NCBI GenBank assembly: GCA_964509605.1
Contig: CAZDXF010000001.1
Span: 79,619 to 143,618 of the forward strand
Length of the DNA stretch: 64,000 bases
Direction: 5' to 3'
From: an uncultured Candidatus Saccharibacteria bacterium
Lineage (GTDB): Bacteria > Patescibacteriota > Minisyncoccia > Phycocordibacterales > Zambryskibacteraceae
Shown here: positions 5,053-63,573 of the stretch, piece by piece
Layout of the letters: the number at the start of each line of letters is the position of its first letter
Position numbering within the stretch: position 1 is the first letter of the stretch
The notes under the pieces: generated by a model
Databases searched by the model: none
What the model was told of the DNA's origin: nothing
What the model saw: only the letters and a program-made list of their open reading frames with translations
Program-made: the position numbers and the translations under genes

Positions 5053-6039
5053 ATGAATGATGCGAAAACACTGCTGTCTGGAGTAAAACCGACAGGAAGA
5101 CCTCACATAGGAAACTATCTTGGAGCAATGAAACAGTTTGTTGAACTGCAGAGCGACTACAGAAGCTTTGTGTTTATTGCTGATCTACACGCACTTACAA
5201 CTCTCCAAGACCCCAAAGAGCTTAAGCAAAACATAATTGATGTTGCCTTAGATTACTTGGCGATAGGACTTGATCCCAAAAAAGTCGTTCTTTACAAACA
5301 ATCAGATGTCCCACAGGTAGCGGAGCTGTCCTGGATATTCAGCTGTATCACGACGATGCCATATCTTATGAGAGCGCACGCTTTTAAAGATGCTGAAGCA
5401 AAAAAGAAAGAGATAAGTGTTGGTACATTTAACTATCCAATGCTAATGACAGCGGACATATTGATTCAAGAGCCAGACATAGTGCCTGTTGGACTGGATC
5501 AAAAACAACATTTAGAAATAGCCAGAGACACAGCTTCAAAATTTAACAGATTGTTTGGTGACACTTTTAAAGTTCCAGAACCGATGATATTAGAAAATGT
5601 GCAAACAGTACCTGGAACAGATGGACAAAAGATGAGCAAAAGCTACAAAAATACGATTGGATTATTTTCGTCTGATTCGGAAATAAAAGAAGCTGTTATG
5701 AGTATAAAGACAGATTCAAAAGAAGTAGAGGAGCCAAAAGACACGGAAACTTGCAATGTTTTTGCATTGCACAAATACTTTACGGAAGGGCCTGAATTTG
5801 AAGATCTTAGAGACAGATATGAAGCTGGGGGAGTGGGATATAAAGAGTCCAAAGAAATTCTCATTAAAAATATAATAAAGTTCATGGCTCCACTAAGAGA
5901 GAAAAGGTTGGAATTGGAAAAAGACACTGACAGTGTTTTAGAAATCATAGAAAATGGAGGAAAAACAGCGCGCAGAGAAGCTGAGGAAAAAATGGAAGAA
6001 GTGAGAGAAAAAATAGGAATAAATATATATAAAAAATGA
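5053..6039 (+). CDS. trpS: Tryptophan--tRNA ligase
   Basis: HIGH-type motif TGRPHIGNYLGA and a KMSKS motif. The ORF track begins at a TTG at 5029; the ATG at 5053 is the likely start. Confidence 0.9.
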   Translation: MNDAKTLLSGVKPTGRPHIGNYLGAMKQFVELQSDYRSFVFIADLHALTTLQDPKELKQNIIDVALDYLAIGLDPKKVVLYKQSDVPQVAELSWIFSCITTMPYLMRAHAFKDAEAKKKEISVGTFNYPMLMTADILIQEPDIVPVGLDQKQHLEIARDTASKFNRLFGDTFKVPEPMILENVQTVPGTDGQKMSKSYKNTIGLFSSDSEIKEAVMSIKTDSKEVEEPKDTETCNVFALHKYFTEGPEFEDLRDRYEAGGVGYKESKEILIKNIIKFMAPLREKRLELEKDTDSVLEIIENGGKTARREAEEKMEEVREKIGINIYKK

Positions 6040-7331
6040 CAAACTGCACACACTCTTCGGAAATCAAAAACTTCATTGGAAAAGAAATCTGCGTCCAGGG
6101 ATTTGTTCAAGCTTTAAGAGTTCAAAGTAAAATAATATTCCTTGTTTTAAGAGACATAAAAGGAACCGTCCAGGCGGTGATACTTAATAATTCTCCAGAA
6201 TTTGAAAAAGTTAAAAATATTACAACCGAATCGGTCGTAAGAATATATGGAAAGGTAAAAGAGGAAAAAAACGCACCAGGCGGAGCCGAAATTGAACCTG
6301 AAAAAATAGAAATCTTATCTTTGGCAGAACCAGAACTTCCAATACCTGTAGTAACAATAAAGGGAGGAGAAGAAACGGAGGCGCCACTCAGACTTGATTA
6401 CCGATGGATAGATTTGAGAAAACCCGAGAAAGCCCATGTATTTAAAATCTGGACCGAGTTTGAAAAAGGTTGGAGAAAGTTTTGGGATGAAAACAATTTT
6501 ATACAAATATACACCCCTTCTTTTATGAGTACGCCAAGCGAATCTGGTGCGGATGTTTTTTCAGTAGATTATTTTGATAGAAAGGCATATCTGGCTCAGT
6601 CTCCACAGTTTTACAAACAAATGGCAATAGCTTCAGGTCTCGAAAGGGTATTTATGACTGGACCAGTATTTAGGGCGGAACTTTCTTTTACAACCAGACA
6701 CTTAACAGAATTTACCGGATGGGATTTTGAAATCGGTTTTATAGATTCTCACCACGACATCATGGATATGGAGGAAGGTATGATTGTCTCCGGCTTTGAA
6801 CAAATTCTAAAAACATTTCCGGACACAAATATAGAGATACCGAAACAGCCATTTCCAAGAATACCTATGGTTGAGGTGAAAGAAATTCTAAAAAAATTGG
6901 AAATACCATCTCCAGAAGAACACGACCTTTCTCCCGAAGAAGAGAGGGCCATTTCTGACTATGTAAAAAAAGAAATGAATCATGATTTTGTTTTTATAAC
7001 TGATTATCACAAATCTAAAAGCGCCTTTTATCATATGAGGCATCCAGAAGATAATGATAGGTCCAGGCGAGCAGATTTGTTGTACAGAGGCGTAGAGGTC
7101 ACTACATTGGCGCAAAGAGAACACAGGCCGGACATACTTGAAAAACAGGCAAAAGAGAAAGGGATGGATTTAGAATCCATAAAAGATTATATAAATTTCT
7201 TTAGATATGGATGCCCGCCACATGGAGGAGGGGGAGTTGGGCCTGGAAGGTTTGTAATGAAAATTTTAGATTTACCAAATGTCCGCGAGGCAACCTTTTT
7301 GCCTAGAGACGTAAAGAGACTTAATCCCTAA
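6036..7331 (+). CDS. aspS: Class IIb aminoacyl-tRNA ligase, type-2 AspRS (possibly non-discriminating) or AsnRS
   Basis: N-terminal OB anticodon-binding fold, QSPQFYKQ, FRAE, and motif 3 GGGGVGPGRFVMKIL. Its 431-aa length fits archaeal-type AspRS or AsnRS. Its start codon overlaps the trpS stop. Confidence 0.8.
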   Translation: MTNCTHSSEIKNFIGKEICVQGFVQALRVQSKIIFLVLRDIKGTVQAVILNNSPEFEKVKNITTESVVRIYGKVKEEKNAPGGAEIEPEKIEILSLAEPELPIPVVTIKGGEETEAPLRLDYRWIDLRKPEKAHVFKIWTEFEKGWRKFWDENNFIQIYTPSFMSTPSESGADVFSVDYFDRKAYLAQSPQFYKQMAIASGLERVFMTGPVFRAELSFTTRHLTEFTGWDFEIGFIDSHHDIMDMEEGMIVSGFEQILKTFPDTNIEIPKQPFPRIPMVEVKEILKKLEIPSPEEHDLSPEEERAISDYVKKEMNHDFVFITDYHKSKSAFYHMRHPEDNDRSRRADLLYRGVEVTTLAQREHRPDILEKQAKEKGMDLESIKDYINFFRYGCPPHGGGGVGPGRFVMKILDLPNVREATFLPRDVKRLNP

Positions 7332-8101
7332 TGTCCTTATCTCAATTTACAGTCAAAACTTCTTCATTTGAAGGTCCGTTAGATTTACTGCTTTCTCTTA
7401 TAGAGAAAAGAAAGCTTTTTATAAATGATATTTCACTTTCTAAAGTTGCTGATGATTATATTGAACATGTAAACAAGATGGGTGATCTACCAATGGGAAT
7501 GACCGCTCATTTTATACTCATTGCTTCAACTTTGATTTTAATTAAATCTCGCTCTCTACTACCATCCCTAGAACTATCTCAAGAAGAAGAAAAAAGTATT
7601 GAAGATTTGGAAGAAAGGTTGAGACTTTATAAAAAATTTAAAGAGCTCTCGCTTCATGTCCAAAAAAGATTTGGCAAAAAAATAATTTTTTCTAAATCTA
7701 CCGGTCCCAACATACCAATAATATTTTCTCCTGATAAAGAAATATCCACACAAGCAATTTTGCAGGCAGTCCAAAACACAATATCCAACTTGCCGAAAAA
7801 AGAATCGCTACCAAAGACTATCGTGGAAAAAATTATAAGCCTTGAAGAAATGATAGAGCGCCTAACAGAGAGGGTGTCTGATGAGTTGAAAATGAATTTT
7901 AGTGATTTTACAAAAAATCATGGTACTGCTAAAGGTTCTCGACACAAAGCAATCTCCAGAGAAGAAAAGAAAAATATTATAGTAAGTTTTCTGGCGCTTT
8001 TAGAGCTAGTAAAACAAGGAATTCTTGAGGCAACACAAGAAAAAATGGAGGAAGATATAAATATAGAAACCCCAAAACTATCCCTGCCTAATTATATTTA
8101 A
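7331..8101 (+). CDS. scpA: Segregation and condensation protein A
   Basis: N-terminus FEGPLDLLLSLIEKRKLFINDISLSKVADDY is typical of ScpA. It is followed by scpB. Confidence 0.85.
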   Translation: MSLSQFTVKTSSFEGPLDLLLSLIEKRKLFINDISLSKVADDYIEHVNKMGDLPMGMTAHFILIASTLILIKSRSLLPSLELSQEEEKSIEDLEERLRLYKKFKELSLHVQKRFGKKIIFSKSTGPNIPIIFSPDKEISTQAILQAVQNTISNLPKKESLPKTIVEKIISLEEMIERLTERVSDELKMNFSDFTKNHGTAKGSRHKAISREEKKNIIVSFLALLELVKQGILEATQEKMEEDINIETPKLSLPNYI

Positions 8102-8659
8102 ATGAAAATTGACCTAAAATCACAAATTGAAGCTGTGCTTTTTTTCAAAGGAGAACCTGTCTCTTTTTCTAAACTTTCTCAGCTTTTAAAAGTATCGAAA
8201 GATGAAATAGAAAAAGCCCTACATCAATTGGAAGAAAAGTTGAAAGACGGTGGTTTGGTTTTGATAATTAGCAACGAAACAGTGATGCTTGGAACATCGC
8301 CGGAAGCCGGAAAAATAATCGAAGAAATCACAAAAGAGGAACTGCATAAAGATCTGGGAAGAGCAGGAATGGAAACCTTGGCAATAATTCTTTACAAACA
8401 CCCGATATCAAAAAAAGAAATTGATTACATAAGAGGAGTAAACTCTTCTTTCATAATAAGAAATCTTTTAATAAGAGGGATGATCCAAAGAAAAGATGTA
8501 GAGGGGGAGAGGGGATATTCATACGAACCAACATTAGAACTTTTTGCCTTTATGGGAATTTCAAAAAAAGAAGATTTGCCAGAATATTCGGAAGTCTTGA
8601 AAGAATTTGAAAATTTTAGTAAAAATGAGAGTCAAAAAGAGGCAGAGGAAAATATTTAA
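8102..8659 (+). CDS. scpB: Segregation and condensation protein B
   Basis: Winged-helix ScpB signature (EAVLFFKGEPVS...LS). It forms an operon with scpA. Confidence 0.85.
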   Translation: MKIDLKSQIEAVLFFKGEPVSFSKLSQLLKVSKDEIEKALHQLEEKLKDGGLVLIISNETVMLGTSPEAGKIIEEITKEELHKDLGRAGMETLAIILYKHPISKKEIDYIRGVNSSFIIRNLLIRGMIQRKDVEGERGYSYEPTLELFAFMGISKKEDLPEYSEVLKEFENFSKNESQKEAEENI

Positions 8660-9622
8660 ATGGTAGAAAATAAAGGAAATTACTTTGAGATAGAAAACAA
8701 ACGTCTGATTAGTTTGGGATTTTTGTTGTTGATATTTCTCTCAATAATATTTCTTGTCTCACTGTATACATCCAGAGGAATAAGAACTTACGAAGAAAAA
8801 AAACTGGCCGAAATAGAAAAAATTAATCCCTTCGAAAACTTGGCAATAGAAGCGCGTTCAGCGATTGTCTGGGATGTAGTAAACTCTCAATCAATTTTTG
8901 AAAAAAATCCCGATGAAAAATTGCCATTGGCTTCAATAACCAAACTGATGATGGCTGTAACGGCTTTGGATTTGGTTCCGAAGTATACCGTAGTAACTAT
9001 TGATAAAAAATTCTTGGAGGAAGAAGGAGACAGCGGTCTTTTTGCAGATGAAAAATGGGAACTTAAAGATCTGATAGATCTTTCAATGGTTGTATCTTCA
9101 AATGACGCAGCATCAGCAATTGCCGCTATTTCAGGAGGAGTCTCAGCGGGTTCTGAAGTTTTTGAAATAGGAAGACAGGAATTTATAAACAAGATGAATG
9201 AAAAAGCGCTCTCTATTGGAATGGAAAAAACTATTTTCTATAAAGAAAATGGACTGGACAGAGACAAAGAAAATAGTGGTGCCTACGGTTCTGCAAGAGA
9301 CATAGCTAAACTTTTTGAATATGCTCTCAAAAACCACCCGGATATTTTAGAGGCCACAAAATATGAAAACATCAAATTAAAATCTCTAAGTCAAATATCT
9401 CATGAAGTAAAAAATACCAACCAAATAGTCGGGGAAATACCTGGTCTTATAGGCTCAAAAACGGGCTATACAGAGCTTTCGGGGGGAAATTTGGGGGTAA
9501 TCATAGATCCGGGAATAGGAAGGCCTATAATAATAATCGTGCTGGGATCTGGCTATGAAAAGAGATTTGAGGATGTGGCTCTTCTTTCAAGGAAAACTCT
9601 AGACTATTTGGGGTCAAACTAA
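8660..9622 (+). CDS. D-alanyl-D-alanine carboxypeptidase (class C PBP, S11)
   Basis: N-terminal TM anchor plus SxxK (SITKLM), SxN (SSND) and KTG (KTGYT) active-site motifs. Confidence 0.8.
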   Translation: MVENKGNYFEIENKRLISLGFLLLIFLSIIFLVSLYTSRGIRTYEEKKLAEIEKINPFENLAIEARSAIVWDVVNSQSIFEKNPDEKLPLASITKLMMAVTALDLVPKYTVVTIDKKFLEEEGDSGLFADEKWELKDLIDLSMVVSSNDAASAIAAISGGVSAGSEVFEIGRQEFINKMNEKALSIGMEKTIFYKENGLDRDKENSGAYGSARDIAKLFEYALKNHPDILEATKYENIKLKSLSQISHEVKNTNQIVGEIPGLIGSKTGYTELSGGNLGVIIDPGIGRPIIIIVLGSGYEKRFEDVALLSRKTLDYLGSN

Positions 9623-9660
9623 TCCCTTTTACAATCATGGGCTAATGTATAATAAAGCCC

Positions 9661-10737
9661 ATGATTATTGCTGATATCGTAAAAGTTTTTCTTCCTGCAG
9701 TTCTGGCTTTTTGTATTGGAGTTTTAATAACTCCCATAATCACAAACTATCTCTATAAAAATGAGATGTGGAAGAAAAAAGCTGGCAAAATGACGCTCGA
9801 TGGAAAAGAAACTCCAGTCTTTAACAGTTTGCATAAAGAAAAAGAAGTAGGTACTCCTAGAATGGGCGGGCTCGTCATTTGGTCTTCTTCTGTAATTACG
9901 ATTCTTGGGATTTGGATAATCTCACTCACACTTCCATCTGACTTAAGTTCCAAACTTGATTTTCTAAGCAGGAATCAAACTTGGCTTCCTCTTTTTACTT
10001 TAATCTTGGGATCTCTAATTGGTTTACTTGATGATTATTTGGAAGTAAGCGGTGGAGGAGGACATGTTGCGGGGGGACTTTCCCTTAAAAAAAGACTTTT
10101 GGCCGTTGGAGCTATTGGTATTGTTTCTGGATTTTGGTTTTTTTCAAAACTTGATGTATCGGGAATAGGACTGCCAAACGATGGATTTATAAATTTAGGT
10201 TGGTTCTTTATTCCTTTCTTTGCGTTAGTAATGATAGCCATATATTCAGGAGGAGTGATAGACGGAATAGACGGATTGGCGGGAGGAGTTTTTGCGACAA
10301 TGTTTAGTGCATATGCAGGCATAGCTTTCTATCAACAACAAATAAATCTCGCTGCTTTTTGTCTAACGCTTGTTGGAGGAATCCTCGCTTTTCTTTGGTT
10401 CAACATTCCGCCAGCAAGGTTTTATATGTCAGAAACAGGGACAATGGGGCTAACTATAACATTGACTGTGGTGGCATTTATGACCGACTCCTTGGGTGGT
10501 GGATACGGAATTTTAGTTCTTCCAATAATTGCAATGCCTTTGGTAATAACAACCCTGTCCAACATCATCCAAGTAATTTCAAAAAAAATGAGAGCGGGTA
10601 AAAAGGTTTTCCTTGTTGCCCCAGTTCACCACCATTTTGAAGCAATTGGATGGCCCGGATACAAGGTTACAATGAGATATTGGATATTTGGTGTTGTTTT
10701 TGCAATTCTCGGAGTCATTTTGGCCATAACGGCCTAA
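9661..10737 (+). CDS. mraY: Phospho-N-acetylmuramoyl-pentapeptide transferase
   Basis: 10-TM protein with a DDxxD-like LLDDYLE motif and the PVHHHFE motif. It sits in a dcw-like order with ftsW and murG. Confidence 0.95.
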   Translation: MIIADIVKVFLPAVLAFCIGVLITPIITNYLYKNEMWKKKAGKMTLDGKETPVFNSLHKEKEVGTPRMGGLVIWSSSVITILGIWIISLTLPSDLSSKLDFLSRNQTWLPLFTLILGSLIGLLDDYLEVSGGGGHVAGGLSLKKRLLAVGAIGIVSGFWFFSKLDVSGIGLPNDGFINLGWFFIPFFALVMIAIYSGGVIDGIDGLAGGVFATMFSAYAGIAFYQQQINLAAFCLTLVGGILAFLWFNIPPARFYMSETGTMGLTITLTVVAFMTDSLGGGYGILVLPIIAMPLVITTLSNIIQVISKKMRAGKKVFLVAPVHHHFEAIGWPGYKVTMRYWIFGVVFAILGVILAITA

Positions 10738-16424: not shown

Positions 16425-16997
16425 CTAAAACTTCCTTATAACGGCCTTTACAATAGCTGCAACCTGAAAACTTTCCTGAGGATACATTGGCTTGTAATTT
16501 TTATTGGCTGGTTCAAGCCAGACTTTTTCTCCTTTTTTTCTAAAGTATTTCATAGTCCAACCACCATCAATTTCAGCAATGACAATGTCTCCATCGCGCG
16601 GATCCCCCTTTCTCTCCACTAAAACATAATCACCCTCATCTATGTGAGCTTCTATCATTGAATCTCCTTTAACTTCCAAAATATAGGTTTTATCTTTTTC
16701 TTCAACGAGAAAATCTTCCAGACTTATTGTGTCCAAATTTTGCTCTTCGGTTTCTGTTGGAAGACCGGCCTCAACCAAACCCAAAATGGGTATTTCATCA
16801 AAAACTTTTGCCGGAACAATGCGTCCTTGTGGGTCTTTTGAGACAATTCCCTCCTCGACTAGCCAAGAAATTAGTTTATGAACCGAATTTTTGGATTTAA
16901 AACCCAAAAGAGCCATTACCTCTTTATATCCTGGCATTCGCCGATTTTTTCTGTAAAAATCCAGAATTCTCTCTTTTTGTTCTTGTTTTTTGTTCAT
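16425..16997 (-). CDS. lexA: LexA repressor (S24 peptidase)
   Basis: N-terminal winged HTH (ILDFYRKNRRMPGYKEVMALLGF) and a C-terminal S24 domain with GDSM and the catalytic Lys region. A GAAC-N4-GTTC box lies upstream. Confidence 0.9.
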   Translation of the reverse strand: MNKKQEQKERILDFYRKNRRMPGYKEVMALLGFKSKNSVHKLISWLVEEGIVSKDPQGRIVPAKVFDEIPILGLVEAGLPTETEEQNLDTISLEDFLVEEKDKTYILEVKGDSMIEAHIDEGDYVLVERKGDPRDGDIVIAEIDGGWTMKYFRKKGEKVWLEPANKNYKPMYPQESFQVAAIVKAVIRKF

Positions 16998-17253: not shown

Positions 17254-17324
17254 TTCAATAGATAATTGTGGATAACTTTAATCTTTGCTAAAATAAGCCT
17301 TTAAACGCTTAAAATAAAACAAAA

Positions 17325-25119: not shown

Positions 25120-25953
25120 ATGAGAAGGCTCCAGAATTGGTTCAGGAAAATAGGTTCGAAAAAAGTTCTGATTGCCGTGATTGGCGTCGTTTTCGGTACC
25201 TTCCTTGGTTCCTTTTTTACTTTCATGTTTGGTCCAGTCATGGGTCTCGTGCCGGGTCTCGTTATCGGTATCATCGGAGGTCTCTTCCTAGGTCTCTTCT
25301 GGGGTTTTGGATCCACCCTCGGCGTTCTTTTAGCTGTTGCTGTGTGGTTATATCCCGGTCCAATGATTTACACTTGGTTGATGGTAACTTTGTCGCTCGT
25401 CATTAAGAGCTGGTTCTTGGTAAGGGGAGAAATGAGGTGGAAAAAGATAATCTGTACAGAGAATGCTCAACACTACCCTTCCCTTTCCGACCTGAGGCAA
25501 AGCTCTCTTCGGCTGATTGAAGTAGAGGGATTCTCCGTTTTTAAGAAAAAGGCGGAGGAGGTGTACCTAGATCTACCGAAGATCGCCCGAGAGCTCTTAG
25601 ATCTGCATTCCGCCTACAACAAAAGCACTTCCCAAATCAAGACAGAGATGTACAGAGGTGAAATACTTAAGACTGTCGAGAGACTTCTGGAGATGAACGA
25701 GATATTCTCCCAAGAACTCGTCCGTCTTGAGCGTGAACAACCGAGTAGAGAAGCTGACGAATCAAAGATTGTAGTTTCCAAGCTCGCCACAATAGGCGGT
25801 CTTGAAGACACTCTTGATGAACTTCGTCGCCTCAGAGATGGAATGGTTGAAGCGGAAGATGAAACACCTCAAGGCACAGCTCTTGAAAGAGAGATTGATG
25901 GCTTGAAGCAAGCTTCCCCATTGCCGTTTCCTCGCGTGAAAGGCAACTACTAG
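25120..25953 (+). CDS. Hypothetical membrane protein (glycine-zipper-rich 3-TM N-terminus plus cytoplasmic coiled-coil domain); GC-rich cassette gene
   Basis: GGGGAGG Shine-Dalgarno sequence. GxxxG-rich TM helices followed by a ~170-aa charged helical domain. About 50% GC. Own promoter and terminator. Confidence 0.6.
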   Translation: MRRLQNWFRKIGSKKVLIAVIGVVFGTFLGSFFTFMFGPVMGLVPGLVIGIIGGLFLGLFWGFGSTLGVLLAVAVWLYPGPMIYTWLMVTLSLVIKSWFLVRGEMRWKKIICTENAQHYPSLSDLRQSSLRLIEVEGFSVFKKKAEEVYLDLPKIARELLDLHSAYNKSTSQIKTEMYRGEILKTVERLLEMNEIFSQELVRLEREQPSREADESKIVVSKLATIGGLEDTLDELRRLRDGMVEAEDETPQGTALEREIDGLKQASPLPFPRVKGNY

Positions 25954-27540: not shown

Positions 27541-27918
27541 ATGCATCTAGCAACCGCAGGTGAAGCGAAGGCACAGTTTATGACAATCCTCATGAGTGAA
27601 GCGGTATCAACAGATGCTATCCTGTCTCTCATCGAGGATATCGAAGCCGGACAAGTGGTGGGTCGAGATTGCGAGAGATGTCCAATCGCTCTTCTCGCCT
27701 ACTACTCTGAGAAGACCTACGAGTCTTTTCGAAGGAGGTTCGGATTTTCTCCCAACTGGAGAGAGAATCCGTTTGAGGTTTTCGTACAGGGAATCTTCTC
27801 CGGACACACTCCGGCGAAAAACTCTGATCTGGCCCATGTCCTCGTGTGGTGCGACGAAGCGCTTATCATGAGGGCCGAGCGAAGTGTGCTGGAAACCTCA
27901 GAGGTCCTCGCTTCCTGA
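27541..27918 (+). CDS. Hypothetical protein (125 aa); GC-rich cassette gene
   Basis: TTGACTTTTTT-N16-TTATAA promoter at ~27466-27498. AAAGGAG Shine-Dalgarno sequence. About 55% GC. A GC hairpin terminator follows. No motif recognised. Confidence 0.5.
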   Translation: MHLATAGEAKAQFMTILMSEAVSTDAILSLIEDIEAGQVVGRDCERCPIALLAYYSEKTYESFRRRFGFSPNWRENPFEVFVQGIFSGHTPAKNSDLAHVLVWCDEALIMRAERSVLETSEVLAS

Positions 27919-36421: not shown

Positions 36422-36868
36422 ATGTTGCATAAAGAGATACAAAAAGAAATCGCCGAGGCAATGAAGGCCAAAAACACCGTAAAGCTTAATACCGTTAGAG
36501 GGCTGTTGTCCTCATTTACAAATGAGCTTGTCGCAAAAGGCAGAAAACCCACAGAAGAGCTCACGGACGAGGAAGTGCTTGAGGTAATAAGACGATCTGT
36601 AAAACAAAGAAAAGATTCTATAGAGCAGTTTAAAAAAGGAGGAAGAAATGATTTGGCAGAAAGCGAGGAAGCAGAGCTAAAAATTTTGGAAGTATATCTA
36701 CCACAGATGATGAGTCAAGATGAAATCCGGCCAATCGTTGAATCAAAAATAAAAGAGCTTGGAGCTGACAAAAGCAAGATTGGTCAACTTATAGGAGCGA
36801 TAATGAAAGAACTAAAAGGAAAAGCGGACGGGGCTGATGTCAAAGCGGTAGTGGAATCTATTTTATAA
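36422..36868 (+). CDS. GatB/YqeY domain protein
   Basis: IAEAMKAKNTVKLNTVRGLLS...EVYLP is the typical YqeY signature. TGTATAAT extended -10 upstream. Confidence 0.8.
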   Translation: MLHKEIQKEIAEAMKAKNTVKLNTVRGLLSSFTNELVAKGRKPTEELTDEEVLEVIRRSVKQRKDSIEQFKKGGRNDLAESEEAELKILEVYLPQMMSQDEIRPIVESKIKELGADKSKIGQLIGAIMKELKGKADGADVKAVVESIL

Positions 36869-36934
36869 AAATTTCCACTTGATTTTCGTTAGATGAGTAT
36901 ATACTAGAATACAGAACCCTTTCATGGAGGAATT

Positions 36935-37423
36935 GTGCTGACACTTTCCGCATGTTCCTTTGACATCCAAGTGAGCTCGATGAGTTTGAGTAGGGTCATA
37001 ACCGCTGGAGATTACGATGTCCTGCACCCTCACATCGGGAAAATAGACCTTTCTGTCTGTGACGTGCCCCTCAGTACCAAGGACAGTGGTGTCCGCGTCA
37101 TAAGCTTTGCAACGGTGCGATCCTTAAACGGCAAAGCCGAAGAAGCATACAGGTGTTTCAAAAAGTTCAAAAAGAAACGATTGGCATTGCTTCGCGAATT
37201 TCTTCACATCGGAGTTTGCAAGCCGGAAATTCAAAGGTTCTATCAGATCTTTTGTCTTACGGCGATGTTTCCAGTAAGAAGGTTGAATGGCAAGTGGACC
37301 TCAGTCGTCCTGTTTCTTGATACGGACAAACTCGGAAGAAGGTGTATCGGTCTGCACGATATAGAGAACCCTCTGCCAATGAGTGCTGTGGTTGCCTATG
37401 TGCAATACCCAGAAGTAAGCTGA
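36935..37423 (+). CDS. Hypothetical protein (162 aa); GC-rich cassette gene (GTG start)
   Basis: GGAGG Shine-Dalgarno sequence 4 nt before the GTG. About 50% GC. Own TTGATT...TATACT promoter and a terminator at 37445-37490. No motif recognised. Confidence 0.5.
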   Translation: MLTLSACSFDIQVSSMSLSRVITAGDYDVLHPHIGKIDLSVCDVPLSTKDSGVRVISFATVRSLNGKAEEAYRCFKKFKKKRLALLREFLHIGVCKPEIQRFYQIFCLTAMFPVRRLNGKWTSVVLFLDTDKLGRRCIGLHDIENPLPMSAVVAYVQYPEVS

Positions 37424-37444
37424 CCATCACCAGCGTATCCAGAC

Positions 37445-37490
37445 AGCCCTGGCCCGTTTTAAACGGACCAGGGCTTGCTCTTTTTCATTA
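37445..37490 (+). terminator. Rho-independent terminator
   Basis: CAGCCCUGGCCCGUUUUAAACGGACCAGGGCUUGCUCUUUUUC. Confidence 0.6.
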
Positions 37491-37579
37491 TCCACAGTTT
37501 CTTGACTTTTTCTTTAAAATATGATAGTATTAAGATCGGAAAGCTCCACTACACTCTAACCGAGGGAAGGAGGGGGGGT

Positions 37580-37849
37580 ATGATTCCCCAGGTTTCGTTC
37601 CAAGACCTCGTAAAAGAGGTCAAGGAGCGCCACATTTCGACCGGTGCTCCTCTCACCCTGCTGGTGGGAGAGGCACTCGCAAGATGTGGTACTGCTGATC
37701 CAGAAGCGAAGTGCAAGCTTCTGTCGGCGGTCGTAGGCGAAGTCCCCTCTTGGAAGCAGGTTCGGAGGGGACTCGTGGAAGAACGGCGGGGCCGTAGTGG
37801 CGTGGTATATCGCGCCGAAAACGGCTTCCAGCCAGAGCGGGACGACTAG
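37580..37849 (+). CDS. Hypothetical protein (~90 aa); GC-rich cassette gene
   Basis: Canonical TTGACTTTTT-N17-TAGTAT promoter at ~37501-37535. GGAGGGGGGG Shine-Dalgarno sequence. A hairpin terminator overlaps the stop (GGGACGACUAGUACAGUCGUCCC + U-tract). Coordinates are ±1 nt. Confidence 0.45.
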   Translation: MIPQVSFQDLVKEVKERHISTGAPLTLLVGEALARCGTADPEAKCKLLSAVVGEVPSWKQVRRGLVEERRGRSGVVYRAENGFQPERDD

Positions 37850-37971
37850 TACAGTCGTCCCGTATTTTTTATTTTAAAAATTAAAAAGCGCGCCGTTGAC
37901 TAACTAAATATTTTATACTATTGTTTGCGCTAGCAGTTCCTAAACAAACAAAAACTACTTTGGAGGTATAT

Positions 37972-38544
37972 ATGTCCACCGAAGGACAGACCAACGACTC
38001 AGCCAACGAGCTGATTCGAAGTTTTCCGAAGGACAGAAGGCTCTTTTTGGGCGACACGGTGGATGCAAAAGAGTCTCGCAGACTCATTTCAAGCATCGTA
38101 TCGCTCTCTGCAACTGAAGACCCAATTCTTCTTACCATCAATTCTGGTGGAGGAGGTTTTTGGGAAGGACACTATCTCTATGATGCAATCAGGGTGTGTC
38201 CAGTATCTGTCACAGGTCTTGTGATTGGTACGGCCTCGTCTGTGGCTTGCGTTATCCTGCAGGCCTGCAATCGAAGATTGATCACCAAACACTCCAGAAT
38301 TCTGGTTCACCCTCCGTCTTTCAGAGGAGATGTGGAGTTTGACATTCACTCTGACAACGAGAGGACTCTCCGAGAAATGCGACACTGGTACAAGGAATTC
38401 AGGCGCAATGTGAGGAGAACTGAAGAACTCCTTCTCAATCATTGCAACCTGAACAGGAACCAGCTTCGCAGTCTTATGGAAAAGGAACTGTATCTCGAGT
38501 CTGACGAAGCGCTAAAAATGGGCTTCGTGGATGAAGTGGTTTAG
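37972..38544 (+). CDS. ClpP-family serine peptidase (S14), stand-alone; GC-rich cassette gene
   Basis: RLFLGDTVD...LTINSGGG...YDAI...GTASSVACVIL (Ser)...SRILVHPP (His)...ESDEALKMGFVDEV (Asp) aligns to the ClpP catalytic triad. GGAGG Shine-Dalgarno sequence, TTGACT promoter, and a GC hairpin terminator. About 50% GC. Confidence 0.8.
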   Translation: MSTEGQTNDSANELIRSFPKDRRLFLGDTVDAKESRRLISSIVSLSATEDPILLTINSGGGGFWEGHYLYDAIRVCPVSVTGLVIGTASSVACVILQACNRRLITKHSRILVHPPSFRGDVEFDIHSDNERTLREMRHWYKEFRRNVRRTEELLLNHCNLNRNQLRSLMEKELYLESDEALKMGFVDEVV

Positions 38545-38550
38545 GTTTGG

Positions 38551-38590
38551 AAAGTGCCCGCGACGCCTTGGCGTCGCGGGCCTTTCTCTT
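38551..38590 (+). terminator. Rho-independent terminator
   Basis: AAAGTGCCCGCGACGCCTTGGCGTCGCGGGCCTTTCTCTTTTTC. Confidence 0.65.
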
Positions 38591-38599
38591 TTTCTTATT

Positions 38600-38637
38600 T
38601 TCTGTCCACTGTCTACTAACTATTGTCTACTATCTTA
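38600..38637. repeat. TCTGTCCACTGTCTACTAACTATTGTCTACTATCTTAA motif, copy c
   Basis: Matches copies a and b. It overlaps the stop codon of the convergent Ogt-like gene. Confidence 0.5.
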
Positions 38638-38881
38638 AATACCCCTCTTCAATAAGCTTTTTTCTCTTTGCAAAATTTCCGCCATTGTACCCTCCAATTT
38701 TTCCATCGCTTTTGACAACTCTATGACACGGAATTTTTGAATCGTGATTTTTATTTAAAATATTCCCTACTGCTCTGTATGCTTTTGGTTTCCCCGAAAG
38801 CTGTGCAACCTCTTTGTAAGTCAAAACTTTTCCGCGAGGGATCTTCTTTACCACTGAATATACTTTTTCTTGAAATGTCAT
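38630..38881 (-). CDS. Methylated-DNA-protein-cysteine methyltransferase family protein (DNA-binding/active-site domain only, 83 aa)
   Basis: TYKEVA...AVGNILNKNHDSKIPCHRVV carries the PCHRV active-site motif. It lacks the N-terminal domain. Confidence 0.8.
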   Translation of the reverse strand: MTFQEKVYSVVKKIPRGKVLTYKEVAQLSGKPKAYRAVGNILNKNHDSKIPCHRVVKSDGKIGGYNGGNFAKRKKLIEEGYLR

Positions 38882-38946
38882 AAATTAATAATAACAAACC
38901 CCCGCCGAGACAAAATCTCGGCGGGGGGCCAGTAATTCGTTCGGGC

Positions 38947-39267
38947 TCAAGCCCTCTGCGAAGCCGAGGCTCCGCTTCGCTTCCTCTGCCTTCTCACCCT
39001 CGGATGAAAACGCCACTTGCGAATGGCCCCACCCCCACGCTGGACAAAAACTCCGAAGCGCAGAGACCTCTCCCCTTCAAGCATCTGAACAATCTTGTGG
39101 GGCATCTCCCAGAGATTTCTCCTCTCCCCGTCACCGCAGAGCTTGTCCATATGGAGATTCTCTTCGCAGACGATCTGGGCGATGACTTGGTTGGTGTGAC
39201 TGTCCATCGGCTCCACGAACCAGCGATACTCCCGCCTCTTCTTCTCCAACAAATATCTCGTCGGCAT
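38947..39267 (-). CDS. Hypothetical protein (106 aa); GC-rich cassette gene
   Basis: About 58% GC. GGAGGAG lies immediately upstream of the ATG. A strong terminator (CCCCCGCCGAGA/UCUCGGCGGGGG + UUUGUU) lies downstream at ~38895-38935. Overlapping alternative-frame ORFs make the frame call tentative. Confidence 0.4.
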   Translation of the reverse strand: MPTRYLLEKKRREYRWFVEPMDSHTNQVIAQIVCEENLHMDKLCGDGERRNLWEMPHKIVQMLEGERSLRFGVFVQRGGGAIRKWRFHPRVRRQRKRSGASASQRA

Positions 39268-39329
39268 TTCTCCTCCAAGGTGGAAGTGTGGTGTTCAACT
39301 CTATTTACAATACGATTTTTATATAAAAA

Positions 39330-39370
39330 ATCAAATAAATAAAAACACTGCGCAATTTGAATTGCGCAGT
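39330..39370. terminator. Bidirectional terminator (12-bp perfect stem flanked by A5/T5), plus a second hairpin at 39386-39410
   Basis: AAAAACACTGCGCAATTTGAATTGCGCAGTGTTTTT, followed by CGTGTCGACCTGGCAGGTCGACACG. Confidence 0.55.
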
Positions 39371-39416
39371 GTTTTTATCACCAACCCGTGTCGACCTGGC
39401 AGGTCGACACGCTTTT

Positions 39417-40357: not shown

Positions 40358-40429
40358 TGACCCTACCGGGAATCGAACCCGGCTTTGGAGCTTGAGAAGC
40401 TCCCGTCCTAACCGATAGACGATAGGGCC
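40358..40429 (-). tRNA. tRNA-Glu (anticodon CUC)
   Basis: Manual cloverleaf. Acceptor GGCCCUA/UAGGGUC, D-arm GUCU/GGAC with a GG loop, anticodon stem GGAGC/GCUCC with loop UUCUCAA, T-arm CCGGG-UUCGAUU-CCCGG, discriminator A. No encoded CCA. Confidence 0.85.
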
Positions 40430-45354: not shown

Positions 45355-45444
45355 TTCTTCCCACTTAACTACAAGTGTAAAACACTTACTCCCACTCAGT
45401 GAAACTTTTTATCCACATTTTTGGTGAACTTCCGTTCACTAATA

Positions 45445-45505: not shown

Positions 45506-47284
45506 TCAAACGCCAACGGTGAGACGACGCTTCTTTGTCGCCACCTTTTTGGACTGAGACTTGCCATCGGAAGACTTCTGATCCTTAACGTTGCTGTCAA
45601 GAATCTTCTTGCCACGACGTCCTCCAAACTGACGCCCGGCGATGGTATCGCCGTGAATCAGCATGAAAACGTACGGGGCATAGGTCTCCTCCAACACAAG
45701 TTCTGCGAACGGCGCCCAATCGCTCGGGGCGGCCCGGAGAGCCAGCGCCTGTAGCATGACATACTCCTGGAAACGCATCAGAGTTCTGTCACTGTGCTCT
45801 TCGCACTGTTGCCACAGAGGGTGCAGAACATTAATCCTCAGGGTGCCGGTTTCCTCTTCCAATACCCAGAGTCGGTCGCTTCCCTGAATAGCATCATGCA
45901 CCAACTGAAGTCCGAGACTGTTGCTACGGACAATCGTTCGGCGTGTGCCTTTTGGACCAACGACCGTCATGGGACGGTGTTCTGGACGTTCCTTCTCGGG
46001 TTCAAAGTTCTCATTACCCTCACCCTCACCATTTGAGGGCTTCTCGGGACGAAGGTTATTGACGGCCAGAGACGTTTCCGGAGAAGGACTTCCCTTCTTT
46101 TCGAAATGCCCAGGTCCAATCGAACCCTTCTTGAAAGACTCAATGGCCTTGAGAAGCCCAGCAAACTGCGGCCTCTTCAACATCTCTTCGATGACTTTCA
46201 TCGAACGAATGCCGAGTTGCTGGTAGCGCTCCTCTTGCCGCTGATCATTAGCGTCCTGATAATGCTCGGCGCCGTGTTCAGCGAACCACTTTTCGAGGAT
46301 CACACAGAAACCAACCAGCGACTCGTCGGCCTCAAACGACCGGCGACTGGCGTGGAGTGTGATTGCACTGTTGAGGACCTCACCCTCGAAAAGACCAGAA
46401 CCCAGAGCAGACACAAGCTCATCCGAGAGCTTACACGCCTCCGGCAAGGACCGATTGAATGTCGAGAAGTTCAGACGAAAATCGTTGTCCTTCTCGCCAA
46501 CCAAGACCTTACCATTGCGCTTACCCTTCTTATCCTTCTGGGCCAAGAAGAGTCGGAAGTGGGTCTGCCCCGACTCCCTGTCTCGATAATCGACCTCTTC
46601 CAGCTTCCTGCCAGTGAAGTCCTTGGCCCTGATTTCACAACTCTGCCGTTCACCGTCTTCATCGACGACAGTCAACTCAATCACCGACTGGTTCTTACGC
46701 ATGGTGGAAGCGAAACGCTCCAACACACCATCACGAAGGGAATCCATAGTCACGATGTTGATCTGTCGATCGGTCGTGAACCCTTCGATTCTCACCTCAG
46801 TACGCCAGCGAACAGAGGACACTCCACGAACCACTCGCGTCTCTGCCCGAGAAAACTGCAGATCGAGGCGCTCCCTCATGGGGATGCCTTCGATCTTCTG
46901 CTGTTTCAGGAGATCGTCGGTAACGAAGCTCCACTCCAAGAAACCCTTGGGGTTCCGCTTGGTAGTGGAGGTAAAGATGAATCGAGCACACTTGCCCAAT
47001 GGCGAGATAAGCCCAAGACCAAAGCGTCCCAATTTATCCTTCTTCTTGATGGAAGAGGAAACGCTGGTCAGGGCCTTTTCAAACTCTTGCTGACTCACTC
47101 CATCTCCATCATCGCGGACAGCGATCTGACGCTGCTTCTGATTCACAACGATGGTGATAACCTGAGCTCCCTTGTCGAGACAGTTTTGCACGCTCTCGAG
47201 CAAGACATCCAGGATCCTAGGGTAGTACCCCGCAAGTTTGAGCAGGGCCGCTCCCTCATGAAAACTAAAAGGGCTCTGTTTCAC
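45506..47284 (-). CDS. GHKL-superfamily ATPase (MORC/MutL/Hsp90-like Bergerat fold) with unknown C-terminal domains; third gene of the GC-rich operon
   Basis: N-box ESVQNCLDKGA (ExxxNxxD), G1 RDDGDGV, and G2 LGRFGLGLIS, followed by ~450 aa without recognised motifs, including an E/G-rich linker. GTG start with an AAAGGAGA Shine-Dalgarno sequence. About 55% GC. Confidence 0.7.
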   Translation of the reverse strand: MKQSPFSFHEGAALLKLAGYYPRILDVLLESVQNCLDKGAQVITIVVNQKQRQIAVRDDGDGVSQQEFEKALTSVSSSIKKKDKLGRFGLGLISPLGKCARFIFTSTTKRNPKGFLEWSFVTDDLLKQQKIEGIPMRERLDLQFSRAETRVVRGVSSVRWRTEVRIEGFTTDRQINIVTMDSLRDGVLERFASTMRKNQSVIELTVVDEDGERQSCEIRAKDFTGRKLEEVDYRDRESGQTHFRLFLAQKDKKGKRNGKVLVGEKDNDFRLNFSTFNRSLPEACKLSDELVSALGSGLFEGEVLNSAITLHASRRSFEADESLVGFCVILEKWFAEHGAEHYQDANDQRQEERYQQLGIRSMKVIEEMLKRPQFAGLLKAIESFKKGSIGPGHFEKKGSPSPETSLAVNNLRPEKPSNGEGEGNENFEPEKERPEHRPMTVVGPKGTRRTIVRSNSLGLQLVHDAIQGSDRLWVLEEETGTLRINVLHPLWQQCEEHSDRTLMRFQEYVMLQALALRAAPSDWAPFAELVLEETYAPYVFMLIHGDTIAGRQFGGRRGKKILDSNVKDQKSSDGKSQSKKVATKKRRLTVGV

Positions 47285-47301: not shown

Positions 47302-48072
47302 TTATTGCTGGTGGTTGTTGACAAGCTCGCGAGCCTTCTCACTACAGAGTCGACTCGACGCTTTCGACAGGCGAAACATACCATCAGATCCAGTCCGCTT
47401 ACGCAGCTCGTTACGTTGTTCTCGACTGGTTTCAGAAACCGCCCTTTCAAGAAGAGGGGTGATAGCCAAAACCAGATGAGCCAAGACCTCAATTGAAATT
47501 GGGTCTTGTTTCTCAAGATCGAGTGCGCCTTTTGCTACTTGAGTAACTGGTGTACTGGGGGGGTCCGTCTCAACATAAATCTTGATTGACGGAACCCGCA
47601 TCAAAACGCTAAGCAGGGTGGCCTTTTTCTTTGCCAACTCTTCCCCTGCTTCCCCATAGAGCCTTTCTACCTTCTGCGTTCTGGCAGTGTTGGTATCAGA
47701 ATCCGCACGAGCCAAGCGAAATACGCTGTGCGTATCACCGAAACCAAGATGTTCACGGGCTTCTTCTGGCGTCAAAATATCGTACGCCAAAAGCTCGGCT
47801 AGCTTGTGACTGACATGATCAGTACCATGCACATATTCCACAAGCTCGTACCCAACCGCTTCGAGAAATAGACGAAGCTTGATCAGTGGCTCTCCCAACG
47901 GAACATTTCGACCATAAATCCAGGCCGATACCGTGTCAGGATGAACGCGCACAAACTCAACCAGTGGCAATTTCGCCTTGCCAGCTTCCTTGCTACCTTT
48001 CGGTGGTAGAGAATGTTCGGCAAAATGTGCCAAACACTCAATTGTGGTGCCTCGAAACAGTTTACTCATCAC
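47302..48072 (-). CDS. Hypothetical helical protein (256 aa); second gene of the GC-rich operon
   Basis: AAGGAG Shine-Dalgarno sequence 6 nt upstream. About 55% GC. It lies 17 bp upstream of the GHKL ATPase gene. Confidence 0.6.
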   Translation of the reverse strand: MMSKLFRGTTIECLAHFAEHSLPPKGSKEAGKAKLPLVEFVRVHPDTVSAWIYGRNVPLGEPLIKLRLFLEAVGYELVEYVHGTDHVSHKLAELLAYDILTPEEAREHLGFGDTHSVFRLARADSDTNTARTQKVERLYGEAGEELAKKKATLLSVLMRVPSIKIYVETDPPSTPVTQVAKGALDLEKQDPISIEVLAHLVLAITPLLERAVSETSREQRNELRKRTGSDGMFRLSKASSRLCSEKARELVNNHQQ

Positions 48073-63123: not shown

Positions 63124-63573
63124 ATGCGCAAAACTATATGTGCCCTGATTTTTGGGCTTTCCGTTTTCGCATGCGAAAACGGAGCGTCGGTGGTAGATAG
63201 ACCAAATAGTAGTACCGGTGCTTCGGAGACATTGTTTAGGTTCGAACTGGCCCCGCAAATGAACGGTCATCTTTTCAGGAGCGGAGACTATTTCTTCTAT
63301 GTGATGTGTATGGGGCTTAACAGCCGAACTCGTTTTGAGAACGACCCACCGTGGTGGAACGCTCAGGTTAGGTTCGGACTAAGTCTGGAGAAATTGAAAA
63401 TCGACTCTCTTAGACTGGATATGGTTCAGCCTGGGCACTGGAATACTCACTACGGTAAAGATGAGTGGCGTCAGAATTCACCCAGCGCGACTCCAATCAG
63501 AGATATCAAGACAATCACCATCAACAGAACTGAGGGTTCTGCTTGTTGGCTCCTTCGAACAAAAGAATTCTGA
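63124..63573 (+). CDS. Hypothetical lipoprotein (149 aa); GC-rich cassette gene
   Basis: AAGGAGA Shine-Dalgarno sequence. Signal peptide with a lipobox-like LSVFAC. About 50% GC. A GC hairpin terminator follows. Confidence 0.5.
   Translation: MRKTICALIFGLSVFACENGASVVDRPNSSTGASETLFRFELAPQMNGHLFRSGDYFFYVMCMGLNSRTRFENDPPWWNAQVRFGLSLEKLKIDSLRLDMVQPGHWNTHYGKDEWRQNSPSATPIRDIKTITINRTEGSACWLLRTKEF

Follow-up and report, generated by a model that had tools for sequence, protein, structure and literature searches.

A stand-alone ClpP-like protein of an uncurated clade lies beside GC-rich orphan cassettes in a variable island of a Patescibacteria (Parcubacteria-like) chromosome

Proteases with the ClpP fold include canonical ClpP (MEROPS S14; TIGR00493; structures 1tyf and 6hwm) and the phage head-maturation proteases, which act without Clp ATPases. 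Nonstructural "Clp protease-like" genes are also carried by phages, among them Mx1 (WNM70285.1, adjoining a primase-helicase gene), Staphylococcus phage SpP (WZK93713.1), and the Lak megaphages. Phage morons, in the sense of Hendrix and colleagues, are reportedly autonomous promoter-gene-terminator units of atypical composition. The literature yielded nothing usable on Clp in Patescibacteria/Parcubacteria or on ClpP-like defense genes. Here, we analyze a ClpP-like gene and the small orphan genes around it (A and B upstream, D downstream) in a 64-kb stretch of contig CAZDXF010000001.1, referred to below as the window. The original prediction, drawn from this sequence, was of a stand-alone ClpP-family protease with two unknown small partners; its observations are largely confirmed, with one residue misassigned, and its interpretation is partly supported. 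In our favored reading, to which we give an even chance, the gene encodes an active, ATPase-independent accessory serine peptidase of an uncurated clade and lies beside unrelated moron-like orphan cassettes in a variable island.

The product (190 amino acids, not 191 as first stated) matches the Pfam family CLP_protease (PF00574) with 89.1 bits against a cutoff of 20.2 bits. Residues 10 to 190 cover model positions 5 to 179 of 182, so the proposed alignment to ClpP across the whole fold holds, and the protein can also be aligned with the solved ClpPs in the PDB. In these alignments, Ser90 (GTAS-S90-VA) and His113 (ILVHPP) fall on the catalytic serine and histidine; Ser90, His113, and Gly61 correspond to S111, H136, and G82 of Escherichia coli ClpP (precursor numbering), and the oxyanion pair Gly60-Gly61 is kept. 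The triad had been called intact, with the aspartate of an ESDEAL motif as its third member. The serine and histidine stand, whereas the aspartate was misassigned, because E. coli Asp185 aligns with Glu172 (MEKELYL) and the ESDEAL aspartate is a tyrosine in one ortholog, the very one that has an aspartate in the third-triad column. This column holds Glu (EKE) in three orthologs and Asp (RKD) in one, and E170-K171-E172 forms an acid-base-acid triplet like E169-R170-D171 of E. coli. Glu172 could serve as the third triad residue.

For comparisons of the locus, we used orthologous loci from three related metagenome genomes (L002/L003, L004, and L005). Pairwise, the ClpP-like gene has a proportion of nonsynonymous differences (pN) of 0.13 to 0.27 and a proportion of synonymous differences (pS) of 0.66 to 0.79, and ω is 0.09 to 0.12 in the two pairs with a computable dS. 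The gene is under strong purifying selection. There are only 4 close homologs among 5.8 × 10^9 proteins, and the protein is a small, fast-evolving ClpP relative. Membership in the SppA/S49 or NfeD/SDH Clp-fold proteases was considered and rejected: no family model matched (in Pfam, only a subthreshold Peptidase_S49_N match with E = 0.045; NF047768 of NCBIfam was not matched), and the histidine is present at the ClpP position.

The protein falls below every curated family cutoff in NCBIfam. ClpP equivalogs gave 42 to 55 bits against cutoffs of 251 to 361 (for TIGR00493, 52 bits against 308.6), and ClpP subfamily models gave 71 to 86 bits against 228 to 249 (PRK00277, 71 against 249; PRK12553, the best NCBIfam match, 86 against 228). 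Clp_rel_HeadMat (NF045542) reached 67.3 bits against a cutoff of 120 bits, and the PHROG head-maturation families (94, 1684, 2976, and 133) gave 55 to 81 bits. Judged by curated cutoffs, the protein belongs neither with the housekeeping ClpPs nor with the head-maturation proteases. Its first core strand begins after about 21 residues, compared with 40 in the E. coli precursor, and the first 12 are hydrophilic and unconserved among the four orthologs. At the positions that we take, from E. coli ClpP-acyldepsipeptide structures, to form the IGF/LGF-loop docking pocket, E. coli F49, Y60, Y62, F82, F112, and L114 are replaced by S44, L53, T55, V75, L103, and T105. As judged by alignment, the protein lacks both the N-terminal axial loop and the aromatic ATPase-docking pocket.

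To place the protein among its relatives, we searched exhaustively with a HMMER profile built from the four orthologs, which gave 14,833 hits. The profile's own cluster scored 391 bits and the next match 121 bits, followed by a long series of proteins of 180 to 195 amino acids. Across the 156 nearest relatives, the Ser, His, and oxyanion Gly are invariant, and the third-triad column is acidic in 116 (71 Asp and 45 Glu; 40 have other residues); their median phmmer score against E. coli ClpP is 45 bits. All 68 clade members scanned match ClpP models and head-maturation models alike, so such scans do not decide between the two. Some members are single genes among ribosomal or other housekeeping genes (loci L087, L090, L102, and L117), and L117 is syntenic with kilobases 5 to 10 of the window, yet its ClpP-like copy lies at a different site. 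Others belong to phage replication modules, beside primase or helicase genes (Mx1, L095, and L115). The best phage matches to the window protein are at most 28% identical, and those with the best annotation map to replication or early regions rather than to head modules. No ClpP-like relatives turned up when GTDB genomes and IMG/VR were scanned by pattern. Profile similarity places the window protease in a large uncurated clade of short (∼180 to 195 amino acids) stand-alone ClpP-like proteins, which occur on chromosomes of candidate phyla radiation (CPR) bacteria and in phage replication modules.

As a whole, the window is AT rich (GC content, 0.39) and chromosomal, with genes for DnaK/DnaJ, DnaB, RecR, L21, RmuC, and YqeY and with mur, fts, and mre genes. 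Relatives of RmuC in GTDB genomes are all from Patescibacteria, the majority labeled as Parcubacteria or Paceibacterota lineages, and we assign the host to Patescibacteria (Parcubacteria-like) on its gene sequences. Four GC-rich genes, A, B, the ClpP-like gene, and D, lie between yqeY and tRNA-Glu. Around the protease locus lie genes for YqeY, RmuC, an Ogt-like protein, and MurF; the remaining open reading frames (ORFs) that were examined in the window are also cellular, with no portal, capsid, terminase, or integrase among them. Neither a ClpX-like nor a second ClpP sequence was found in the 64 kb, and 1.3 Mb of related loci likewise held no ClpX-like sequence, in line with the prediction of a stand-alone ClpP-family protease with no Clp ATPase nearby. 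No flanking repeats or att sites were found around the cassettes. The distance from yqeY to tRNA-Glu is ∼3.5 kb in the window, ∼10 kb in L005, and ∼8 kb in L006; in L009, ligA directly follows yqeY, and the island is absent. The protease and orphan genes sit in a variable island between yqeY and tRNA-Glu.

The order A-B-ClpP-like gene is conserved in the three close relatives only, where the flanking housekeeping genes are equally syntenic. In L118 (positions 1 to 1311), B (75% identical at the protein level) has a near-identical promoter, and the next gene, 40 bp further on, is Ogt-like, without an intervening ClpP-like gene. This Ogt-like gene is much more divergent (54% identical), and a different GC-rich orphan also lies there, a pattern suggestive of movement or recombination of the B cassette as one unit. 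L006, from a sister species and the nearest species representative, has the ClpP-like gene and D with neither A nor B. Its strongly diverged island comprises genes for YqeY, a 113-amino-acid orphan, an ATPase like type IV secretion system coupling proteins, the ClpP-like protein, a small lipoprotein, an Ogt-like protein, and a D homolog; D is the sole neighbor retained together with the ClpP-like gene. The 113-amino-acid orphan was rejected as a B homolog (hhalign probability, 1.3%). The inserted ATPase (908 amino acids; L006, positions 5969 to 8695) resembles type IV secretion coupling proteins of the TraD/VirD4/HerA kind.

The ClpP-like copy of L006 is 27% identical to that of the window, whereas DnaB and RmuC are 77 to 78% identical. 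Furthermore, the window protein scores 43 bits against this syntenic copy and ∼101 bits against clade members on unrelated contigs, which suggests replacement at the locus rather than simple divergence. L009 has no copy at the corresponding site, most relatives likewise lack the gene at the syntenic site, and no homolog of A, B, or D was found near more than 20 other clade members. With few close homologs, absence in L009, a divergent copy in L006, and varied contexts that include phages, the ClpP-like gene is most likely accessory and mobile. Beyond their position, the two supposed partners find no support: as B is found where no ClpP-like gene adjoins it, and other clade members where A and B are missing, the partnership reduces to inherited gene order.

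A few kilobases from the island, L004 has GmrSD_N/HNH, EcoRI methylase, and DUF3800 genes, and L002 has LexA-S24-methylase genes. Directly downstream of the ClpP-like gene and on the same strand, a small lipoprotein gene is found in L005 (10695 to 11153), L006 (4537 to 4941), and L091 (1655 to 2059). The L005 and L006 lipoproteins are homologous (BLASTP E = 6 × 10^−9); for the L091 protein, there was a two-sequence hidden Markov model match only, and BLASTP found nothing. As a conserved general partner, the lipoprotein was rejected, since neither the window nor any of 17 metagenome loci contains it. In L005, a GC-rich insert of ∼500 nucleotides (nt) separates B from the ClpP-like gene (9420 to 9930), with its own TTGACA promoter and terminator. 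It contains no plus-strand ORF longer than 36 amino acids, has a minimum free energy z-score of −4.5, and matches no Rfam family, making it a candidate structured noncoding RNA.

Each gene had been predicted to lie on its own cassette of promoter, Shine-Dalgarno (SD) sequence, and terminator. Reading the sequence, we found GGAGG 4 to 6 nt ahead of the start codons of A, B, and the ClpP-like gene, and a strong hairpin with a U-tract after each cassette gene (folding z-scores, −5.5 to −6.6) (Table 1). The cassette description is borne out for B and the ClpP-like gene; for A, the SD sequence and terminator stand, and the promoter is weaker than claimed, with a 15-nt spacer that explains why the consensus scan did not report it. 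The B promoter is almost invariant across five lineages, and the −35 element and SD sequence of the ClpP-like gene are conserved in the orthologous loci. These signals mark A, B, and the ClpP-like gene as separate transcription units. The DnaA-box-like site TTATCCACA at the B promoter is invariant in five lineages, and the window holds three exact copies versus 0.47 expected; another of these copies precedes, by 9 nt, a TTGAAA/TATAAT promoter facing a LexA-like S24 gene (16425 to 16997, minus strand), and the sequence may be the site of a shared regulator. Rfam searches over positions 36850 to 39400 returned no family and subthreshold terminator-like matches only. A structured RNA in place of genes was ruled out by this result and by the protein-coding substitution pattern at codon positions.

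Table 1. Positions of the ClpP-like gene, its neighbors, and their putative signals in the window
Feature	Position	Strand	Basis or remark
yqeY	36422-36868		Upstream border of island
Promoter-like site of gene A (TTGATT, 15-nt spacer, TATACT)	36879-36905	+	By eye; GGAGG at 36926-36930
Gene A, 162-amino-acid orphan, GTG start, GC 0.47	36935-37423	+	ORF, pN < pS
Intrinsic terminator after A	37446-37486	+	Hairpin of −23.3 kcal/mol, z = −5.5, then U-tract
TTATCCACA, identical to DnaA-box consensus	37488-37496	+	5 nt upstream of gene B −35
Other copies of TTATCCACA	17267-17275	−	
	45409-45417		
Putative promoter of gene B (TTGACT, 17-nt spacer with TG, TAGTAT)	37502-37530	+	Consensus scan, sigma-70-like; GGAGG at 37569-37573
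Gene B, 89-amino-acid orphan, GC 0.59	37580-37849	+	ORF
Intrinsic terminator after B	37837-37873	+	−20.3 kcal/mol, z = −6.6; overlaps B stop codon
Promoter-like site of ClpP-like gene (TTGACT ... TATTGT)	37896-37924	+	Consensus scan, sigma-70-like; GGAGG at 37962-37966
ClpP-like serine peptidase, 190 amino acids, GC 0.48	37972-38544	+	ORF; Pfam CLP_protease; PDB ClpP alignments
Ser90 codon	38239-38241	+	Catalytic position by alignment
His113 codon	38308-38310	+	Catalytic position by alignment
Glu172 codon	38485-38487	+	Third-triad column by alignment
Intrinsic terminator after ClpP-like gene	38556-38595	+	−31.9 kcal/mol, z = −6.6
Ogt/MGMT C-terminal-domain protein, 83 amino acids, AT rich	38630-38881	−	Pfam DNA_binding_1, 102 bits
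Intrinsic terminator after D	38899-38927	−	13-bp stem, z = −5.7
Gene D, 106-amino-acid orphan, GC 0.56, GC3 0.71	38947-39267	−	ORF; outside the region of the original prediction
tRNA-Glu	40358-40429		Rfam, gathering threshold; downstream border of island

In every pairwise comparison among the orthologous loci, A, B, the ClpP-like gene, and D have an excess of third-position changes and pN below pS; this purifying selection shows that they are real protein-coding genes. The description of the two upstream neighbors as GC-rich orphans is correct, as neither matches a family in Pfam, PHROGs, NCBIfam, or PADLOC. Each has five homologs among the 5.8 × 10^9 proteins, all from this lineage. Gene A evolves fast, the window product being 26 to 32% identical to the other copies, and its AlphaFold2 model (5 sequences) is unusable, with a predicted local distance difference test (pLDDT) score of 33. 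Gene B has a dN/dS of 0.15 to 0.31. Its AlphaFold2 model predicts helices over residues 7 to 65, with ∼50 residues at a pLDDT of 70 to 90, and a tail (62 to 89) below 50, i.e., a likely N-terminal helical bundle followed by an invariant tail (...VYRAxNGFQPERDD) of low model confidence. Fold and profile searches, the check proposed for these two proteins, identified neither: PDB profile searches gave nothing credible for A or for D, and the B fold had no significant match in PDB or BFVD. A SAM-domain identity for B was dropped, as its sequence matches were subthreshold (E of 0.04 to 2) and the fold search gave no backing. Gene D is kept in L002 to L005 and has its own SD sequence and terminator. 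Its ω is 0.09 to 0.23 where computable, its L006 homolog was recognized by hhalign (E = 2.6 × 10^−6), and it has no match in Pfam, PHROGs, NCBIfam, PADLOC, or PDB.

Composition sets these genes apart from their surroundings. The GC contents of A, B, and the ClpP-like gene exceed that of the window, and their GC contents at third codon positions (GC3) are 0.52 to 0.61 versus ∼0.3. Across the window, L002, L004, and L005, the GC3 of A, B, the ClpP-like gene, and D is 0.41 to 0.72, while interleaved host-like neighbors have 0.21 to 0.39. Since synonymous sites between the four genomes are saturated and the high GC3 nevertheless persists, a single old transfer is insufficient as an explanation. 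The Ogt-like gene between the GC-rich genes (GC3, 0.30; 89 to 91% identical in relatives) is host-like and probably outside the feature. Its 83-amino-acid product consists of the MGMT/Ogt DNA-binding C-terminal domain alone and, with the cysteine of the PCHR active site retained, resembles a minimal alkyltransferase. Elsewhere in the window, ORFs with a GC3 of ∼0.46 to 0.62 (versus ∼0.3 as the typical value for the genome) lie at 25120 to 25953, 27541 to 27918, 45506 to 47284 (minus strand), 47302 to 48072 (minus strand), and 63124 to 63573. The ORF at 45506 to 47284 encodes a GHKL/HATPase_c_3 ATPase with a weak PADLOC match to TmtA and adjoins a 256-amino-acid orphan; for the remaining scattered ORFs, Pfam gave no match. 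Together, these ORFs resemble a compositional class of accessory genes. Separately, a SET-domain protein (Pfam SET, 59 bits) is encoded at 2265 to 2786.

In the favored reading, Ser90, His113, and Glu172 would form the active triad of an accessory protein, not of a housekeeping ClpP. The protein would assemble into a ClpP-like ring that degrades peptides or unfolded polypeptides without an unfoldase, and A, B, and D would be separate moron-like cassettes that share the island by descent. Several points weigh against it. Activity and oligomeric state are read from alignment, and the pocket residues compared above are a presumed set. The genome was read over 64 kb of a 204-kb contig, and a Clp ATPase may be encoded elsewhere in it. 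Moreover, four genomes share the A-B-ClpP-like order and the unusual GC3, as a functional module would, and the strongly conserved, low-confidence tail of B is the type of element that could dock to a protease or be cut by it.

The latter points would fit a different arrangement, in which A, B, and the ClpP-like gene, perhaps joined by D, make up one module for conflict, defense, or toxin activation. The protease would process or degrade one of the small proteins, the B tail (YRAxNGFQPERDD) would be the docking or cleavage element, and the DnaA-box-like site would tie B expression to replication status. Such a module would account for gene order and atypical GC3 being kept in four genomes despite saturated synonymous sites, although the order is no better conserved than that of the flanking housekeeping genes, and every gene has its own promoter-like site and terminator. 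The rapid evolution of A, the pairing in B of a confidently modeled helical domain with an invariant tail, and the invariance of TTATCCACA in the B promoter would also suit it; yet B stands without an adjacent ClpP-like gene in L118, the L006 ClpP-like gene stands without A or B, and A, B, and D are missing from the surroundings of more than 20 other clade members. A role in defense or toxin activation, as originally suggested, finds no direct support: PADLOC returned no match for the ClpP-like protein, for A, B, or D, for the copies in L006, or for the proteins P0013 and P0019. The location in a variable island, with restriction- or defense-type genes a few kilobases away in L004 and L002, leaves such a role some probability. 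We consider one module unlikely, and it retains this much probability because of the shared composition, the conserved tail of B, and the defense-type genes near the island in relatives.

Somewhat less probable still is that the gene is the organism's only, highly divergent housekeeping ClpP, working with a Clp ATPase encoded elsewhere. Its scores are far under every curated ClpP cutoff, even if the model that tops the NCBIfam matches, PRK12553, is a ClpP subfamily model. The catalytic Ser/His/acid residues and oxyanion Gly are kept, but the N-terminal loop and aromatic docking-pocket positions are not. The gene is chromosomal and syntenic among core genes, related stand-alone copies occupy housekeeping contexts in other small genomes, and the 64 kb hold no other ClpP; against this, most relatives lack it at the syntenic site, the L006 copy has diverged far beyond DnaB and RmuC, and its composition is atypical for its genome. 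Least probable of all, in our judgment, is a prophage remnant, with a ClpP-like prohead (head-maturation) protease left behind among moron-like phage genes. The cassette architecture and atypical GC content do resemble phage morons, some clade members are phage borne, and head-maturation models give scores of 55 to 81 bits (PHROGs) and 67 bits (Clp_rel_HeadMat), the last being under its cutoff. However, the locus is inherited vertically with its flanks, IMG/VR returned no relative, the window ORFs examined include no phage structural or integration genes, and the phage matches are distant and, where best annotated, outside head modules. The suggested roles as a partnered protease, a prohead protease, or a defense protease are unsupported, and the prohead role is rejected.

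A bolder extension, which we regard as a long shot, is a so far undescribed CPR proteolytic switch on mobile moron-like cassettes, made up of B, the ClpP-like protease, and perhaps D. Here, B, under DnaA-box control, would report replication status or phage-induced replication stress, and its conserved, probably flexible tail would dock into, or be cleaved by, a gateless ClpP-like ring, triggering a downstream effect. The cassettes would stay GC rich through gene-specific selection or through constant exchange with a phage gene pool of higher GC content.

If the accessory, ATPase-independent peptidase is the correct reading, gateless ClpP-like peptidases that are probably unfoldase independent form a widespread, uncurated branch in CPR bacteria and some phages. 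This would bear on how proteolysis is managed in reduced genomes, and automated labels such as "ATP-dependent Clp protease proteolytic subunit" would be misleading for such genes. A further pattern at the locus is that, over diverged species, the orphan cassettes have retained their high GC3 although the genome around them is AT rich. The practical value lies mainly in correct annotation and testable leads, and current understanding is unchanged unless a substrate or partner is shown.

Compared with canonical ClpP, the window protein shares the whole-length fold, the nucleophile serine in G-x-A-x-S, the histidine in (V/I)H(P/Q)P, the oxyanion GG of the INSxGG motif, an acid-base-acid triplet at the third-triad position, and an insert of handle-region length. 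It differs in being 25 to 28% identical, in having Glu for Asp in three of the four orthologs, in its apparent lack of the N-terminal axial loop or pore motif, and in the aliphatic or polar residues at its IGF-pocket positions; the gene, in addition, has no adjacent clpX, evolves fast, and is patchily distributed. The phage head-maturation proteases (NF045542; PHROG families 94, 1684, 2976, and 133) resemble it in their short ClpP fold and in their bit scores (55 to 81), whereas the window gene lies neither in a head module nor on a viral contig and is not fused to a scaffold or capsid gene. With the nonstructural phage genes, it shares size, the stand-alone kind, and the same broad clade: the Mx1 protein scores 62 bits against the window protein, compared with 41 bits for E. 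coli ClpP, and metagenome loci L095 and L115 have the same helicase-adjacent arrangement as Mx1. The window copy, in contrast, is chromosomal, in a cellular CPR genome, without replication-module neighbors. Finally, like phage morons, A, B, the ClpP-like gene, and D each have a promoter-like site, a strong terminator, and a GC content unlike that of their surroundings, but these cassettes lie in a bacterial chromosome without a recognizable prophage, and their compositional contrast persists across diverged species instead of fading.

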